IMG/VR virus record: IMGVR_UViG_3300027917_004307
Strand: one strand, 5' to 3'
Origin: a virus
Taxonomy: Duplodnaviria > Heunggongvirae > Uroviricota > Caudoviricetes
Length of the DNA stretch: 41,103 nt
Part shown: positions 1,339 to 41,103 of the stretch, piece by piece
Position numbering within the stretch: position 1 is the stretch's first letter
Layout: the number at the start of each line of letters is the position of its first letter
Position numbers and translations under genes: made by a program
The notes under the pieces: model-generated
Told to the model about the DNA's origin: nothing
The model's database searches: none
The model's input: only the letters and a program-made list of their open reading frames with translations

Positions 1339-2910
1339 TTATTCGAAATAGAATCTAACCTGCTGTTCGCCAAGCACGATCATTTCGTTGATACCTATTC
1401 CGAACGCAGATTGATCTGCCAATTGGTTCGTCTTGAGGATATCGTCGGCAGGGTCAAATACTCTGGTAAATTTAACACCATCAATCATCTTCACTGGAGT
1501 AGTGATATCGTCTAGGTATAATTCTTTACCAAGTTCAAAATTGGCAGAATCAAAGAAGTTTGTTATGGCTGTTTCAACTTGGTTCTTAACAGCTGGAGCA
1601 TCAGCGTCCTTATCCATAATAACATCCATCTCCAGCCTTACTCTTTTTATTTCACCATCTAGAACACGCACCTCGTCTGTCGGAGCATTGATTTCTTCTA
1701 AAAAAACACTCAAACCATTCTTAAGCCCAAGACTTGGCTTTACAGGCCCAGACTCGCCTTCTGCAAGAACATACATCTCAACAATATTTGCGTTAAGCGA
1801 CGTGCGTACAGTAGCAACCGCTTTTAGAACACTGCCAAATACTGGGTGACTATATCCAGATGCTTTCTGAGCATAATCGGGCCCAGAAACAGCGGCATTG
1901 AGAGTGGCCGATTCTCTCGGCGCTCTTTTCTTCGCGTCTTCAATATCTTCTTCATCTAGCCCACCCTGCGACGGTTTGAGATTCCTGAATGTCACCTCAA
2001 CTGGCGCAGATGCTGGCGGATCTGGCTGGAACGGTCTGCTTTCATTTATCCTGCCTGATCCAATCCTGCCCCTGATACCACCACCGACACGATACGTAAC
2101 AGTAACTTCTTCACCTGATATCGGTTCTTTACCAGCCTTATTGTCACCAAATATTATTCTTATGCCATTTTCAATCCTAACAACTTCATAAACTTCATTT
2201 TCAGGTCCAGCCCTCTGGATTACGGCTGTTTGTGACCATCTTCTGGTGACTGATCCGCTTCTGACATCAACAAATATTGGCGCACTAAGTATGTTTTTGT
2301 CATTGACTATATCTATTGTTTGGCCAGGCCCGCCAGCAGATACTACGACTTTTGGAGTGTCAAATTTACCCTCAATACCAAATCCCACCACACCACGTTT
2401 GGTTGGTAAAATCTGGATTGGATCAGTCCAGTTATTAGGAGCTCGATATATCTCATATGTCAACAATTTACCATCAGGACCGGTAAGGTTGAACGCTGTA
2501 CCAGCAGGAATTTGCAATGCAGTAGGAAGAGCACTAGGCACACTGACTTCAATATCTACAACGGCAGAAGTTGCAGCTCTCAGCGCCTCATTAATTATTT
2601 TAAGATGTTCGCTAGTAGCTTCCACAGTAAATGAAGATGGTAGGAATGACTCCTGAGCCAAAACTTCACCGCGTTCACTAATAATCGATCCTATAAATGA
2701 TAGTAGGTCAACCAACATTATAATGCCGTTATTATCAACGAAATCATTAAACTGGGTTGGATAATAAGTTCTAATATATTCTATTGATACTCTAAGGAGA
2801 GTATCGTAGTCTAAGGCGGTAAATTGTATACGTCTTAAATCGGCTGTCGGTAGCTTGACGCCAAAATCGTCAGGCACATTTGGCAAATTGAAGAAAGTTT
2901 CTTCCGGCAT
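1339..2910 (-). CDS. Baseplate wedge protein (T4 gp6-like / baseplate J-like)
   Basis: LDYDTLL...WxDF-like N-terminus, IIFGDNKAGKEP, VTYRVGGG..G, GGLDEEDIEDAKKRAP, AVSGPDY motifs; directly after gp25-like gene. Confidence 0.9.
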   Translation of the reverse strand: MPEETFFNLPNVPDDFGVKLPTADLRRIQFTALDYDTLLRVSIEYIRTYYPTQFNDFVDNNGIIMLVDLLSFIGSIISERGEVLAQESFLPSSFTVEATSEHLKIINEALRAATSAVVDIEVSVPSALPTALQIPAGTAFNLTGPDGKLLTYEIYRAPNNWTDPIQILPTKRGVVGFGIEGKFDTPKVVVSAGGPGQTIDIVNDKNILSAPIFVDVRSGSVTRRWSQTAVIQRAGPENEVYEVVRIENGIRIIFGDNKAGKEPISGEEVTVTYRVGGGIRGRIGSGRINESRPFQPDPPASAPVEVTFRNLKPSQGGLDEEDIEDAKKRAPRESATLNAAVSGPDYAQKASGYSHPVFGSVLKAVATVRTSLNANIVEMYVLAEGESGPVKPSLGLKNGLSVFLEEINAPTDEVRVLDGEIKRVRLEMDVIMDKDADAPAVKNQVETAITNFFDSANFELGKELYLDDITTPVKMIDGVKFTRVFDPADDILKTNQLADQSAFGIGINEMIVLGEQQVRFYFE

Positions 2911-3309
2911 TTATTCAACTCTCACCAAAGTCACACCACCATTCGAAACATTTATTTCGATAACAAATCTTTCGTTTGGATTCAAATTTACTGTACCATA
3001 TATATTTATAATTACTGTTGCATTATCTGGCTTCATCTTGACAATCACATCTTGTAACGTAATTCTTGGTTCAAACTCAGATGTGATAGAAAATACCTCA
3101 GACCTGATTCGAGAAATATCTTGGTCTATCAAGTTCTCGAATTGTAGCCCTGGTATTGGGCTGCCATAGTCTGGTTTCATTACCCTTTCGCCGTAGTTAG
3201 TCAATAATAACTGAATATAATCATTTTTTATGAGCCTAACATCCTGCTGTACAGGAAGCACACCATCTGGCCCAAGAAAAGGCGGATTGTATCCAGTCCA
3301 TATAGGCAT
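2911..3309 (-). CDS. Baseplate wedge subunit, gp25/GPW-like
   Basis: IKNDYIQLLLTNYGERVMKPDYGS...FEPRI is the gp25/GPW signature. Confidence 0.92.
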   Translation of the reverse strand: MPIWTGYNPPFLGPDGVLPVQQDVRLIKNDYIQLLLTNYGERVMKPDYGSPIPGLQFENLIDQDISRIRSEVFSITSEFEPRITLQDVIVKMKPDNATVIINIYGTVNLNPNERFVIEINVSNGGVTLVRVE

Positions 3310-30318: not shown

Positions 30319-30400
30319 GCCCAGAGATTTGGGTTCAAATCCCATGACCAGCAGGATGAGTAAGCCTGTTGTGATAGCTTAATCTGGTAAAGTGCTGGGC
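30319..30400 (+). ncRNA. Circularly permuted tRNA mimic Y1 (YrlA-like)
   Basis: GCCCAG - T-arm (GGGTTCAAATCCC) - CAGCAGG/ATGAGTAAG/CCTGTTG - D-arm (GCTTAATCTGGTAAAGT) - CTGGGC. Confidence 0.7.
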
Positions 30401-30441
30401 GTGATTACGAAGCCAGAAAATACTGGCACAATATAGAGAGA

Positions 30442-30581
30442 AACCGGAAGCGGGGGTTCGAATCCCTCCCATCGCAGGATGAATAAACCTGTTCGGGTGG
30501 CCTAGTCATGAGTTGGCTTGCAGAATGAATAACTCTGCTTGGGGCTATACCTGGTGGTAGTTTAGCGGCAGAACGCCGGTT
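30442..30581 (+). ncRNA. Circularly permuted tRNA mimic Y2 with duplicated acceptor-loop hairpin
   Basis: AACCGG - T-arm - CCATC - two ATGAATAA-loop hairpins - GGTGG - D-arm (GTTTAGCGGCAGAAC) - CCGGTT. Confidence 0.65.
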
Positions 30582-30590
30582 CGAAAATGA

Positions 30591-30691
30591 AGCCAGAGGC
30601 GCGGGTTCGATTCCCGCCTCCCCCCTCATCTAGAGGGCTAGGATGAGTAAGCCTACGCAGCGGGGAGTAGCTCAGTGGTAGAGCACTGGCT
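30591..30691 (+). ncRNA. Circularly permuted tRNA mimic Y3
   Basis: AGCCAG - GCGGG TTCGATT CCCGC - CTCCCC ... TAGG/ATGAGTAAG/CCTA ... GGGGAG - GCTCAGTGGTAGAGC - CTGGCT. Confidence 0.75.
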
Positions 30692-30845: not shown

Positions 30846-30862
30846 ACCAGCGTGGTCCTCTA

Positions 30863-30967
30863 CAAGAATTTCAGACGTTCTCTTTGGGAGGTTGCAGGTT
30901 CGAGTCCTGTCCCCCGGATCATCCGGGGGTAGCTCAATTTGGTAGAGCGCTAGTCATTTTATTCTTG
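30863..30967 (+). ncRNA. Circularly permuted tRNA mimic Y6
   Basis: T-arm GCAGG TTCGAGT CCTGT, closed acceptor CCCCCGGA-TCA-TCCGGGGG, D-arm GCTCAATTTGGTAGAGC, distal stem CAAGAAT/ATTCTTG. Confidence 0.7.
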
Positions 30968-31070
30968 TTCAATGACCCGCATTTTTAATAATTTTTCATC
31001 GGGCTCCGCGCCGGACTTAGTCTCCATAAGTATTTTAATCATAGAATTACGTTAAGGACAAAAGAGGTGT

Positions 31071-33276: not shown

Positions 33277-33350
33277 TGCCCCGTAGTGTAATGGAAGCAC
33301 GAGCGGCTTTGACCCGCTTAGCGAAAGTTCGAACCTTTCCGGGGCAACCA
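33277..33350 (+). tRNA. tRNA-Gln(TTG)
   Basis: TGCCCCG/CGGGGCA; AGCGG-CT TTG AC-CCGCT; CCA. Confidence 0.95.
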
Positions 33351-33539
33351 GATCACCCGAGCCACCGCTGGAAACAGAGGAAGGTCAGGACACCACTGCT
33401 TAAGGTGGGAGGGAATTTTCCCGCTTACCACCAAGGGTGCAATCTCAAGCAGGCTGAGAGTGTGAGCAGCTCTACGAAAGCCGGGTAGAGAGCAAAGATT
33501 AATGGTGGCATAGAACAGAATCCTGCCTACTGGGTGATC
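33351..33539 (+). ncRNA. rnpB: Miniature RNase P RNA (catalytic domain only)
   Basis: P1 GATCACCC/GGGTGATC; P2 GCCACC/GGTGGC; P3 CTG-GAAA-CAG; CR-I GAGGAAGGTCAGGA pairs with TCCTGCC (P4, bulged U); P5 CACC/GGTG then CAA; P6 CTGCTT/AAGCAG; AGATTAATG (CR-IV); ACAGAATCCTGCCTA (CR-V). Confidence 0.9.
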
Positions 33540-33599
33540 TTTGATATTAAAGTATTTTATTACTCGTTTATATGATTCACATCAAAACCTGATAACTAT

Positions 33600-33750
33600 G
33601 GGGAAGTAGCTCAACAGGATAGAGTTAGTATGGCGGACCTACATCTTGTAGTCCTATCTATCGGCTAGTGCAGATAGGCAACGCCAGATGGACGGACCGT
33701 CAGAATACCCCGTATGGGTGACGTGGGTTCGAGTCCCACCTTCTCCACCA
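33600..33750 (+). ncRNA. tRNA-like RNA with Ala identity and an expanded multibranch anticodon domain
   Basis: GGGGAAG/CTTCTCC (G3.U70), A73, CCA; D-arm GCTC..GAGT; T-arm GTGGG TTCGAGT CCCAC; ~70 extra folded nt in the anticodon position. Confidence 0.8.
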
Positions 33751-34047
33751 ATGGAAACAACAGAAATATTGAAAGAATTAATCGATGAGCTTGGATATCA
33801 AGCCATAATTTATGATCTCATACCGCATTGGATCGGCGAATGTTACCGAACTATTGATGTAATCAGCCCCAGTACGTGGCCACGCAATAACGTAATCGCT
33901 ACTATCAAGGTTGACGGCGTCTTCATACATATCTTTAAGCGTGTTCTCGGAGGCCGGGGGCGTATAGAATCTAGCCATCAGCTAAGTTTATACGAACCGG
34001 ATTCATTCTGTAGAATAAAAGAAATATTAGCTGAATTAAATGACTAA
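33751..34047 (+). CDS. Lx(D/E/N)P paralogue family protein
   Basis: ATG immediately after CCA; ILKELIDELGY...LSLYEPDSF. Confidence 0.7.
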   Translation: METTEILKELIDELGYQAIIYDLIPHWIGECYRTIDVISPSTWPRNNVIATIKVDGVFIHIFKRVLGGRGRIESSHQLSLYEPDSFCRIKEILAELND

Positions 34048-35491
34048 AAAGAAACAAAAAGAACTTGATTTCATGAACGATCCACGGTACCATTACCAAA
34101 GGTCGCATGTGTCTGATGTCGTTGGAACGATCGATATTGATCGTTATCTCAAATGGTGTAAAGACAATGGATTCAAGGCTACCATATACAAAAGTTGGTT
34201 TGACATGAAGAAGGAAAAGTTGTACATCGCCAGAAAGAAATGCGACGAAAAACTGTTGGCCAGAAGGAAATTCAAGAATCCAAGGAAAGCACTGGATCTC
34301 GTGTTCGACTCAGACATCGTCGGCGCTGACGCGGCGTACAAAAATTTATACTCTAGAATAAAAACACTCAACAAGAAAGACAAAACCAAGTTCAAAAAGC
34401 TTATTACACATATCTACAAACATTCTGATATCCTCAAAGACCCGCCGTTGATAACGGGACTCCTGAACATCATGAAGTGGGAGCCTTATTACATAAATCG
34501 CCCAACGGAGTGGATGCCTAAGACACATAACACAAGAAGACAATTTTCTGATTTGCTTAGGCATTCTTTCTGCAAATACGATGTGCCAAAATTCATGGAC
34601 GAGGTGTGGTTCTCCGAATATGACGGAGCAATAGCCGGAGCAATAGCTGCTGAACTCAAGAGGGAATGGTTCATTTTCATTGGCCAGGGAGGAAATCTTA
34701 GGAAGGCTAGGAAACTACCATTCGAGGTGACGAAGAAGATCGCGCATTATTTTATGCAGGCTCCTGGCAATTTTTCAGTTGAAAACGCACTAATATGGGG
34801 AGTCGTGCACAGCATGGGCGGCGACAAACGAACCGTCGAGGGCATCCTCAGCACCAAAAGAAACGGACAGCTTAATCGACACAATTTCTGGGTAACGGTC
34901 TATAGATTCTTCGTCAACAACCCGATGCTAGACACAGCCCAATACAACCCAATCGTCGACTATATCGATGCCATGAAATATCAACCGCAATATGAATGGA
35001 CGGAACCAGGCATCAGAGTGGAGCGCCCGCCGATTCAGCCGAATTTTATGATGCGTGGAAGAACCGCTTTCTCGCTGTTAAGGCAAGTGGAAGCCTGGCA
35101 TAAGAAACTCGGCAAAGAGAAGAAAGGTGGGAAACTACAATGGGAGAAGAGTAAGTATAATGGATTTGAGTGCCAGACCGGTGAAAGAAGGAACGTCAAA
35201 ATTTGGACTATCAACGAATTGTTGTCAAGCGATGAGCTAATACAAGAAGGGAAAACAATGCGGCATTGCGTGGCGTCTTACGCTCGTTCCTGCCAGAGCC
35301 AAAGGGTCAGCATTTGGTCGATGAAGGTAGATACATGGGAAGGCAAGAAGAACGTACTGACCATCGAAGTCAGAGATGGAACAATCATGCAGGCCCGTGG
35401 CAAGAGAAACGAAAGACCCACAGAGGAAGCCAAGAACATCATAAAAAAGTGGAAGAAAACCCAAGGTCTCGGAATCAGTTCTTATATTTAA
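34040..35491 (+). CDS. PcfJ-domain protein
   Basis: C-terminal ELIQEGKTMRHCVASY...SIWSM...LTIEV..GTIMQARGKRN is the PcfJ-like signature. Confidence 0.85.
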   Translation: MTKKKQKELDFMNDPRYHYQRSHVSDVVGTIDIDRYLKWCKDNGFKATIYKSWFDMKKEKLYIARKKCDEKLLARRKFKNPRKALDLVFDSDIVGADAAYKNLYSRIKTLNKKDKTKFKKLITHIYKHSDILKDPPLITGLLNIMKWEPYYINRPTEWMPKTHNTRRQFSDLLRHSFCKYDVPKFMDEVWFSEYDGAIAGAIAAELKREWFIFIGQGGNLRKARKLPFEVTKKIAHYFMQAPGNFSVENALIWGVVHSMGGDKRTVEGILSTKRNGQLNRHNFWVTVYRFFVNNPMLDTAQYNPIVDYIDAMKYQPQYEWTEPGIRVERPPIQPNFMMRGRTAFSLLRQVEAWHKKLGKEKKGGKLQWEKSKYNGFECQTGERRNVKIWTINELLSSDELIQEGKTMRHCVASYARSCQSQRVSIWSMKVDTWEGKKNVLTIEVRDGTIMQARGKRNERPTEEAKNIIKKWKKTQGLGISSYI

Positions 35492-40629: not shown

Positions 40630-41103
40630 TTATCGATCGGACTGAGATGCCTTATTAGCCCAATCTTTTTCAATTTCTTTTTTCCATTTCGGGCTACGTT
40701 TACGTTTTTCCGCTTTTTGGATCACTTCCGGAATCATCTGAAGCAACCGTTGCTTATCAACCGGTTTATCTAAAAAAGCGTCCGGGCTGAAATAATCATG
40801 GTCCGGCCATTGGCGGTAATTGATGTTTAACTCCTCTCCTATGGCGGAAACGCCAATGATAGGAATATCCTTAAGATCATCATTGGATCGTACTTGCTTG
40901 CAAACCTCAAAACCAGAGAACAGCGTCTCCATCATGATATCGAGCATGATCAAGTCGGGACGCTCTTTTCGGATTAATTCCAATCCTTTTTGACCTTCAT
41001 CGGCCGTCAATACCTCAAAGCCATTTCTTTTTAGAAATGTTTCCATCGTAAAAAGGAAATCGGTATTGTCATCGACTATTACGATTTTGAGGCTCTTTTT
41101 CAT
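40630..41103 (-). CDS. Response regulator receiver-domain protein (bacterial)
   Basis: IVDD, LDIMM (phospho-Asp), GVS, KP motifs; start at the window edge. Confidence 0.92.
   Translation of the reverse strand: MKKSLKIVIVDDNTDFLFTMETFLKRNGFEVLTADEGQKGLELIRKERPDLIMLDIMMETLFSGFEVCKQVRSNDDLKDIPIIGVSAIGEELNINYRQWPDHDYFSPDAFLDKPVDKQRLLQMIPEVIQKAEKRKRSPKWKKEIEKDWANKASQSDR

Follow-up and report, generated by a model that had tools for sequence, protein, structure and literature searches.

A tRNA gene array of a contractile-tailed phage contains a homologue of the catalytic domain of bacterial type A RNase P RNA

Analysis of a 41,103-nt stretch of viral DNA (Caudoviricetes; IMG/VR record IMGVR_UViG_3300027917_004307), hereafter called the window, identified within its tRNA array a 191-nt element that is homologous, in sequence and predicted fold, to the catalytic domain of type A (bacterial) RNase P RNA. 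The initial annotation, made from the letters of the DNA, had proposed a minimal RNase P RNA without a specificity domain at positions 33351–33539, with the elements of the catalytic core in order, and this identity is supported by homology, by the fold and by 55 covarying relatives. The element is probably a working RNase P RNA that the phage encodes itself, descended from the bacterial type A and cut down to its catalytic domain.

Positions 33349–33545 of the plus strand matched RF00010, the Rfam model of bacterial class A RNase P RNA, with a score of 66.5 bits over model positions 1–367 when cmscan was run in local mode with E-value reporting. The E-value of this match was 2.3e-20 in a 301-nt search and 8.7e-19 in 11.2 kb, which is far beyond chance. 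RF00010 was the best scorer within the RNase P clan after overlapping lower-scoring clan members had been dropped by clan competition; the top model was thus the bacterial one and not an archaeal or type T model. An Rfam scan at gathering thresholds listed tRNAs only, and the element is missed by such routine annotation because its score lies below the RF00010 gathering cut-off of 100 bits. The low score is explained by the replacement of about 140 specificity-domain positions and by the absence of P18.

The alignment to RF00010 retained P1, P2, a P3 of 2–3 bp with its GAAA loop, CR-I (GAGGAAGGUC), P5, J5/15, P15, P16, CR-IV and CR-V (ACAGAAUCCUGCCUAC), and the P15/P16 region CCGGGUAG was aligned to the consensus CCGGGUAg. 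In place of the specificity-domain block (15 + 15 + 110 model positions), the element has 12, 8 and 15 nt, or 35 nt in all, with P8–P14 and CR-II/III absent, and all 24 model positions of P18 were deleted. Features shared with type A RNAs include a P4 formed by CR-I and CR-V with its bulged U, CR-IV followed by the P2 3' strand, the P1-P2-P3 order, a P6 pseudoknot between J5/7 and L17, and P15 together with the GGU of L15. Three type A features were missing, namely the specificity domain (P7–P14, CR-II/CR-III), P18 and a gathering score of at least 100 bits, and the element therefore represents a distinct reduced architecture and not an ordinary member of the class. The coordinates of the gene, its helices and its neighbors are listed in Table 1.

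Table 1. Features of the miniature RNase P RNA gene and of the adjoining DNA in the window. Percentages of pairing and covariation refer to the collected relatives.
Feature	Position	Strand	Evidence
tRNA-Gln(UUG), encoded ACCA	33277–33350	+	ARAGORN; Rfam tRNA, 62.9 bits
Miniature RNase P RNA gene, 191 nt, P1 to P1'	33350–33540	+	RF00010, 66.5 bits; own model R1, 190 bits; single copy in window
P1 5' strand, pairs with 33532–33540	33350–33358	+	8 of 8 modelled pairs change on both sides; 94.7% paired
P2 5' strand, pairs with 33504–33509	33361–33366	+	93.5% paired as against 30–42% when slid; 107 compensatory cells
P3, 3 bp (33368–70/33375–77), GAAA tetraloop	33368–33377	+	98.8% paired
CR-I and P4 5' strand (33382–90), bulged U33385, pairs with 33521–33528	33377–33390	+	99.5% paired; 3 covarying pairs
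P5 5' strand, pairs with 33436–33439	33391–33394	+	4 of 4 pairs covary; 99.1% paired
P6 pseudoknot 5' strand (J5/7), pairs with 33464–33469 in loop L17	33396–33401	+	94.4% paired as against 29–51% when slid; 44 compensatory cells
Specificity-domain remnant, 29-nt stem-loop: P7 (33404–08/33428–32) around a 4-bp hairpin (33411–14/33419–22)	33404–33432	+	P7 97.4% paired, 4 covarying pairs; hairpin 98.1% paired
P15 (33443–46/33488–91), P16 (33452–55/33479–82), P17 (33457–60/33470–73), loop L17 (33461–69)	33443–33491	+	95–99% paired, covarying
CR-IV / J18/2 strand AGAUUAAUG	33496–33504	+	RF00010 alignment; mostly 78–100% conserved
CR-V and P4 3' strand	33515–33529	+	ACAGAA.CC 95–100% conserved in 55 relatives
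A+T-rich 59-nt spacer up to the next tRNA-like gene, without a terminator-like site	33541–33599	+	Sequence; promoter/terminator scan
Downstream tRNA-like gene, G3.U70 acceptor, ACCA end, insert of about 75 nt	33600–33750	+	Rfam tRNA, 35.9 bits; tmRNA model, 31.7 bits; fold

Relatives were collected by sequence patterns and by a covariance model. A pattern of CR-I and CR-V at short spacing (100–130 nt) hit 17 IMG/VR loci, among which were 10 distinct real relatives, and a pattern of CR-IV and CR-V gathered 102 loci. The covariance model, R1, was built from 8 sequences and an RNAalifold structure from which P2 and P6 were left out. It matched 36 elements of about 150 to about 290 nt in the first 99 viral loci and three further elements strongly (70–79 bits) in the remaining viral loci; with JGI metagenome loci added, phage and metagenome contigs gave 70 matches, 55 of them distinct and 184–209 nt long. 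These 55 relatives are 34–74% identical to the window copy over the alignment columns, the nearest being the one at 74%, and the end points of the deletion are identical throughout the family.

The predicted pairing is preserved in the relatives by changes on both sides of the helices. RNAalifold, applied to a plain MAFFT alignment of 11 sequences, predicted P1, P3, P4, P5, P7, P15, P16 and P17, and both-side changes kept the pairing in 27 of the 37 predicted pairs. Two model-fitted alignments, A4 and A5, had 94.3% and 96.7% of their cells paired, as against 36–44% and 36–45% when the strands were slid; 34 and 35 of 44 pairs, respectively, had changed on both sides, and in neither case did any of 500 shuffles reach this result. 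P2 and P6, which are absent from the model, were counted by our own script on the A5 alignment, and covariation was found in the collected homologues for P2, for P6 with its L17 partner and for P4 (Table 1). The RF00010 alignment and the relatives thus bear out P1, P2, the short P3 with its GAAA loop, P5, the CAA of J5/15, P15, CR-IV and CR-V as first proposed, and P4 with its bulged U was recovered with the strands 33382–90 and 33521–28. The motif GAGGAA.GUC of CR-I, the bulged U included, is 100% conserved in the 55 relatives, and the GCAA of J5/15 (CAA at 33440–42) is 96–100% conserved.

Three details of the first proposal had to be revised. The P6 pseudoknot had been placed correctly in its 5' strand, but the 3' strand assigned to it, 33447–52, was 59% paired in the relatives as compared with 56% when slid by one column, with 7 compensatory cells, and is a perfect partner in this window only. 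Since positions 33464–69 covary with the 5' strand, P6 is the classical type A contact between J5/7 and L17. L15 had been described as lacking the GGU that pairs with the substrate. However, the internal loop contains GGGUA at 33483–87, aligned to the consensus CGGGUA, and the three bases of its GGU (33484–86) are kept in 100, 89 and 87% of the 55 relatives, which suggests a more ordinary recognition of the 3'-CCA than had been supposed from the single sequence. Finally, the helix that had been described as P18-like is the P16/P17 hairpin, P18 itself being deleted.

What is left of the specificity domain is, as had been noticed, a P7 stem-loop of about 30 nt. Throughout the family this stub consists of a 5-bp P7 around a covarying hairpin of 3–4 bp, with a GA on the 5' side (33409–10 in the window) that is 96–98% conserved in the 55 relatives and a 3' bulge of 5–7 nt. 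The 3' bulge reads U-U-G-N-A in most relatives, with the U 84% and the A 98% conserved, and one may speculate that this sequence would suit a T-loop pentamer like the one in the type T RNA model (PMC13462272). The corresponding 5-nt bulge of the window, GCUUA at 33423–27, is two bases shorter and does not fit such a pentamer. The smallest family members, of 152–161 nt (loci L031:9726–9877, L050:8982–9134, L065:7653–7810, L100:9783–9943 and L109:1545–1705), carry no remnant of the specificity domain, and their P5 is capped by a short loop.

A member of the family is present in a cultured and published phage, Stenotrophomonas phage vB_SmaS-DLP_6. This 244-nt element (KU682439.2, 105774–106017; L113:1302–1545) lies 8 nt upstream of a tRNA-Arg gene at a place where the GenBank record has no feature. 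RF00010 did not report the DLP_6 element at E 0.001 or better, and it was assigned to the family because of its R1 score of 70.2 bits and its visible CR-I, CR-IV, CR-V and stub motifs. A blastn search of a 601-nt region of the window against the INPHARED phages gave no match at E 1e-5; at E 10 the sole relevant match was 38 nt in DLP_6, and the DLP_6 element used as a blastn query matched itself alone. BLAST is too insensitive for this family of miniature RNase P RNAs.

The strict CR-I/CR-V short-spacing pattern had a single real match in 185,579 prokaryote genomes (one per species), so, within the reach of this pattern, the short form belongs to phages. The single match lies on a 1542-nt contig (JBOGJG010000375.1, L119) of an Acidobacteriota metagenome-assembled genome, where it is flanked by tRNAs at distances of 24 nt (upstream) and 2 nt (downstream), and the contig is probably a mis-binned phage fragment. 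The species 1 and 2 RNAs of phage T4 (rnaC, rnaD) occupy the same kind of position within the tRNA cluster of T4; they were considered as degenerate relatives and rejected, their best R1 score being 4.5 bits with filters off.

The window belongs to a contractile-tailed phage (myovirus), as indicated by genes for a tail sheath protein (PHROG, 3.7e-85), baseplate wedge and hub proteins, a tape measure protein and a primase. Its tRNA array extends from 29.3 to 39.6 kb on the plus strand and contains 18 tRNA genes found by ARAGORN, to which Rfam adds two tRNA-like genes with inserts. The RNase P RNA gene is flush with the CCA (33348–50) of tRNA-Gln, as initially described, the last base of the tRNA doubling as the first of the ribozyme's P1. 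A scan of 28.8–34.2 kb for promoters and terminators gave counts no higher than those in shuffles and none flanking the gene. A tRNA on the same strand lies within 400 nt in 45 of 73 distinct family members and within 10 nt in 29 (20 upstream, 16 downstream), and this adjacency across the family suggests that the ends of the RNA are made by tRNA-processing cuts. Of the 20 genes for tRNAs or tRNA-like RNAs in the array, 14 encode CCA, which fits a ribozyme that retains the CCA-binding GGU.

Several other features of the array and its surroundings were recorded. The tRNA-like gene downstream of the ribozyme, which ARAGORN did not call, combines an acceptor stem of 7 bp with D- and T-arms and a small variable hairpin, and a folded insert replaces its anticodon arm; its 5' end is expected to be the next RNase P site. 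Gaps in the array contain sub-threshold plus-strand matches to YrlA, a Y RNA-like family, at 30861–30972 and 30600–30684 (44.5 and 33.5 bits; cut-off 69) and a 109-nt tRNA match with an insert at 30368–30476 (30.2 bits). The array is adjoined by genes for a 483-aa protein with a C-terminal PcfJ-like domain (34040–35491, plus strand; 3.4e-15) and for a response-regulator receiver-domain protein (40630–41103, minus strand; PF00072, 1.2e-19), the open reading frame of which runs off the end of the window. At one related locus, L011, a tmRNA gene (2543–2928, minus strand) shares the tRNA array with the miniature RNase P RNA (L011:1943–2135). The public sequencing runs containing the stretch were two DNA runs from one marine-sediment sample, from which the window may derive, with no RNA run listed.

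From the homology, fold, conservation and genomic setting of the element, we infer how it may be made and used. The miniature RNase P RNA would be transcribed within the plus-strand tRNA array of the phage; its 5' end would arise from cleavage at the tRNA-Gln 3' end, and its 3' end from an RNase P cut at the following tRNA-like gene and subsequent 3' trimming. The freed ribozyme would then remove the 5' leaders of the phage pre-tRNAs. The CR-II/CR-III T-loop module of the specificity domain docks the tRNA elbow, and the GNRA loop of P18 docks into P8. Substrates of the phage RNA would have to be bound without the T-loop module, presumably by way of the acceptor stem, pairing of the tRNA 3'-RCCA with the GGU of L15, and leader contacts made by a protein cofactor. 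Because the elbow-measuring module is missing, activity could be poor without a helper; moreover, it is not obvious what the phage would gain, as its host already possesses an RNase P. The essential role of RNase P in E. coli is to separate polycistronic tRNA transcripts (PMC7049720), and a long tRNA array would therefore create a demand for the enzyme.

The array itself also bears on an alternative that we consider unlikely, in which the RNA is an active ribozyme that acts mainly not on ordinary pre-tRNAs but on tRNA-like RNAs of the array (33600–33750 and the YrlA-like matches near 30.6–31.0 kb), phage mRNAs or host RNAs. Loss of the specificity domain should relax the canonical requirement for a T/D-loop elbow, and several non-canonical tRNA-like genes are present in the array. 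On the other hand, many relatives are located within arrays of ordinary tRNAs only, and the conserved GGU points to acceptor stems of the tRNA type that end in CCA.

The protein cofactor of the phage RNA would most likely be the host RnpA. RnpA (PF00825), the sole RNase P protein family searched, was found neither among the 20 open reading frames of the window (41 kb of phage) nor by six-frame searches in the records of five relatives, among them a genome of 183.6 kb with terminal repeats, rated 100% complete, a record of 476 kb rated 98% complete, and the complete DLP_6 genome; in a control search, the family was detected in 10 of 14 reference bacteria. The regions of the RNA bound by RnpA in bacterial holoenzymes are CR-IV, CR-V and P2–P4. 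Since these regions are intact in the phage RNA and no phage RnpA was found, host RnpA is the simplest guess. A 69-aa open reading frame starts a few bases 3' of the RNA in four to five of the closest relatives (L005:5517–5726, plus strand; L161, L172 and L197; diverged in L170). It was rejected as a general RNase P partner, as tblastn found no homologue in the window and Pfam offered nothing convincing, the sole match being a weak, sub-threshold one to TCAD7 (19.8 bits).

Intact RnpA-binding regions, the absence of the domain that grips the substrate and the failure to find a phage RnpA are also what would be expected of a non-catalytic decoy or sponge that captures host RnpA and either starves the host RNase P or redirects the protein during host takeover. 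This explanation is less likely again, because the GGU of L15, the P6 pseudoknot and the P15–P17 arm, which are unneeded for protein binding, are equally conserved. Furthermore, the gene is located inside a tRNA array, as expected of a processing factor, and the 18–20 tRNAs of the phage themselves need RNase P cleavage, so a shutdown would hurt the phage. That the element is a functionless, decaying fragment of a host rnpB acquired by the phage, as a sub-cut-off Rfam score and the loss of half of the molecule might suggest, is scarcely credible in view of the covariation, which excludes a dead host-gene fragment: the 55 relatives, 34–74% identical, share one truncated architecture and its deletion end points, their core nucleotides are invariant and each helix shows compensatory changes, and the pattern scan of the 185,579 prokaryote genomes found one such form, on a 1.5-kb contig.

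The favored reading, a working RNase P RNA reduced to its catalytic domain, was compared with known RNase P RNAs and other ribozymes. Type A RNAs (RF00010; E. coli M1 RNA/rnpB, Thermotoga maritima) share with it the sequence and order of CR-I, CR-IV and CR-V, helices P1–P5 with the bulged-U P4, the J5/7-L17 P6 and P15–P17 with the GGU of L15. They are, however, about 350–400 nt long (367 Rfam model positions), whereas the phage RNA has 191 nt, lacks P8–P14, CR-II/III and P18, and has a P3 of 3 bp; it is also viral and located within a tRNA array, and no rnpA was found next to it or otherwise encoded by the phage.

Archaeal type T RNA, from which most of the specificity domain is missing, is reported to be catalytically active (PMC7191817, PMC13462272). 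The parallel with type T drawn in the initial annotation is apt as an architectural analogy, in that both are natural RNAs with a conserved catalytic domain and a specificity domain reduced to about one stem. The resemblance is in architecture only: type T RNA is the product of a cellular gene, has an archaeal sequence and works with the proteins Pop5, Rpp30 and Rpp29, whereas the phage RNA has a bacterial type A sequence, for which RF00010 is the best model in the clan, and has kept the GGU of L15 and P6. In addition, the model of type T RNA keeps one T-loop in its stub, whereas none is identifiable in the stub of the window.

The catalytic domain of the E. coli RNA alone cleaves substrates with reduced efficiency (PMC5839562). 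Such constructs are laboratory deletions, whereas the phage RNA is naturally selected, has a conserved stub of its own and lacks P18. Reduced bacterial RNAs, such as those of Mycoplasma fermentans and of CPR bacteria without P12, P13, P14 and P18 (PMC8172020), are likewise of type A, have lost peripheral helices and score below Rfam thresholds, but they are cellular and keep most of the specificity domain (P8–P11, CR-II/III), whereas the phage form has lost all of these parts; the loss of P12 was termed "highly unusual" (PMC8172020). Theta (HDV-like) ribozymes of gut phages are also phage-encoded, adjoin tRNA genes and are implicated in tRNA maturation (PMC10879173), but they are small, self-cleaving and unrelated to RNase P, unlike the phage RNA, which is homologous to the trans-acting ribozyme of RNase P.

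A full-text literature search, with subscription journals outside its coverage, found no paper on a phage- or virus-encoded RNase P RNA. Phages are unmentioned in the paper on an rnpB-finding tool, and an Rfam scan of megaphage genomes reported tRNAs and a tmRNA only (PMC8172020), which would be expected if RNAs of this kind fall below the thresholds. The window RNA is thus a member of a large, conserved family of phage RNAs that is apparently undescribed in print. On balance, we lean toward the broader proposal that large tailed phages carry their own catalytic-domain-only RNase P RNA of 150–250 nt, which would be a new structural class of the bacterial type and the first viral one, would be released by tRNA-processing cuts, and would act with hijacked host RnpA or without protein, making tRNA maturation independent of the host rnpB.

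Because their Rfam scores are below the cut-off, genes of this family are unannotated in published phage genomes, such as that of Stenotrophomonas phage DLP_6. RNase P RNA has been treated as a hallmark gene of cells, and a conserved viral version would add 5' maturation of tRNAs to the translation functions of large phages. If it works, the phage RNA would be a naturally selected ribozyme of the bacterial type without a specificity domain, with about 190 nt here, or about half of the 367-position model, and about 150 nt in relatives. Such forms would make it possible to test how large a part of RNase P accurate tRNA recognition requires and what the protein contributes.
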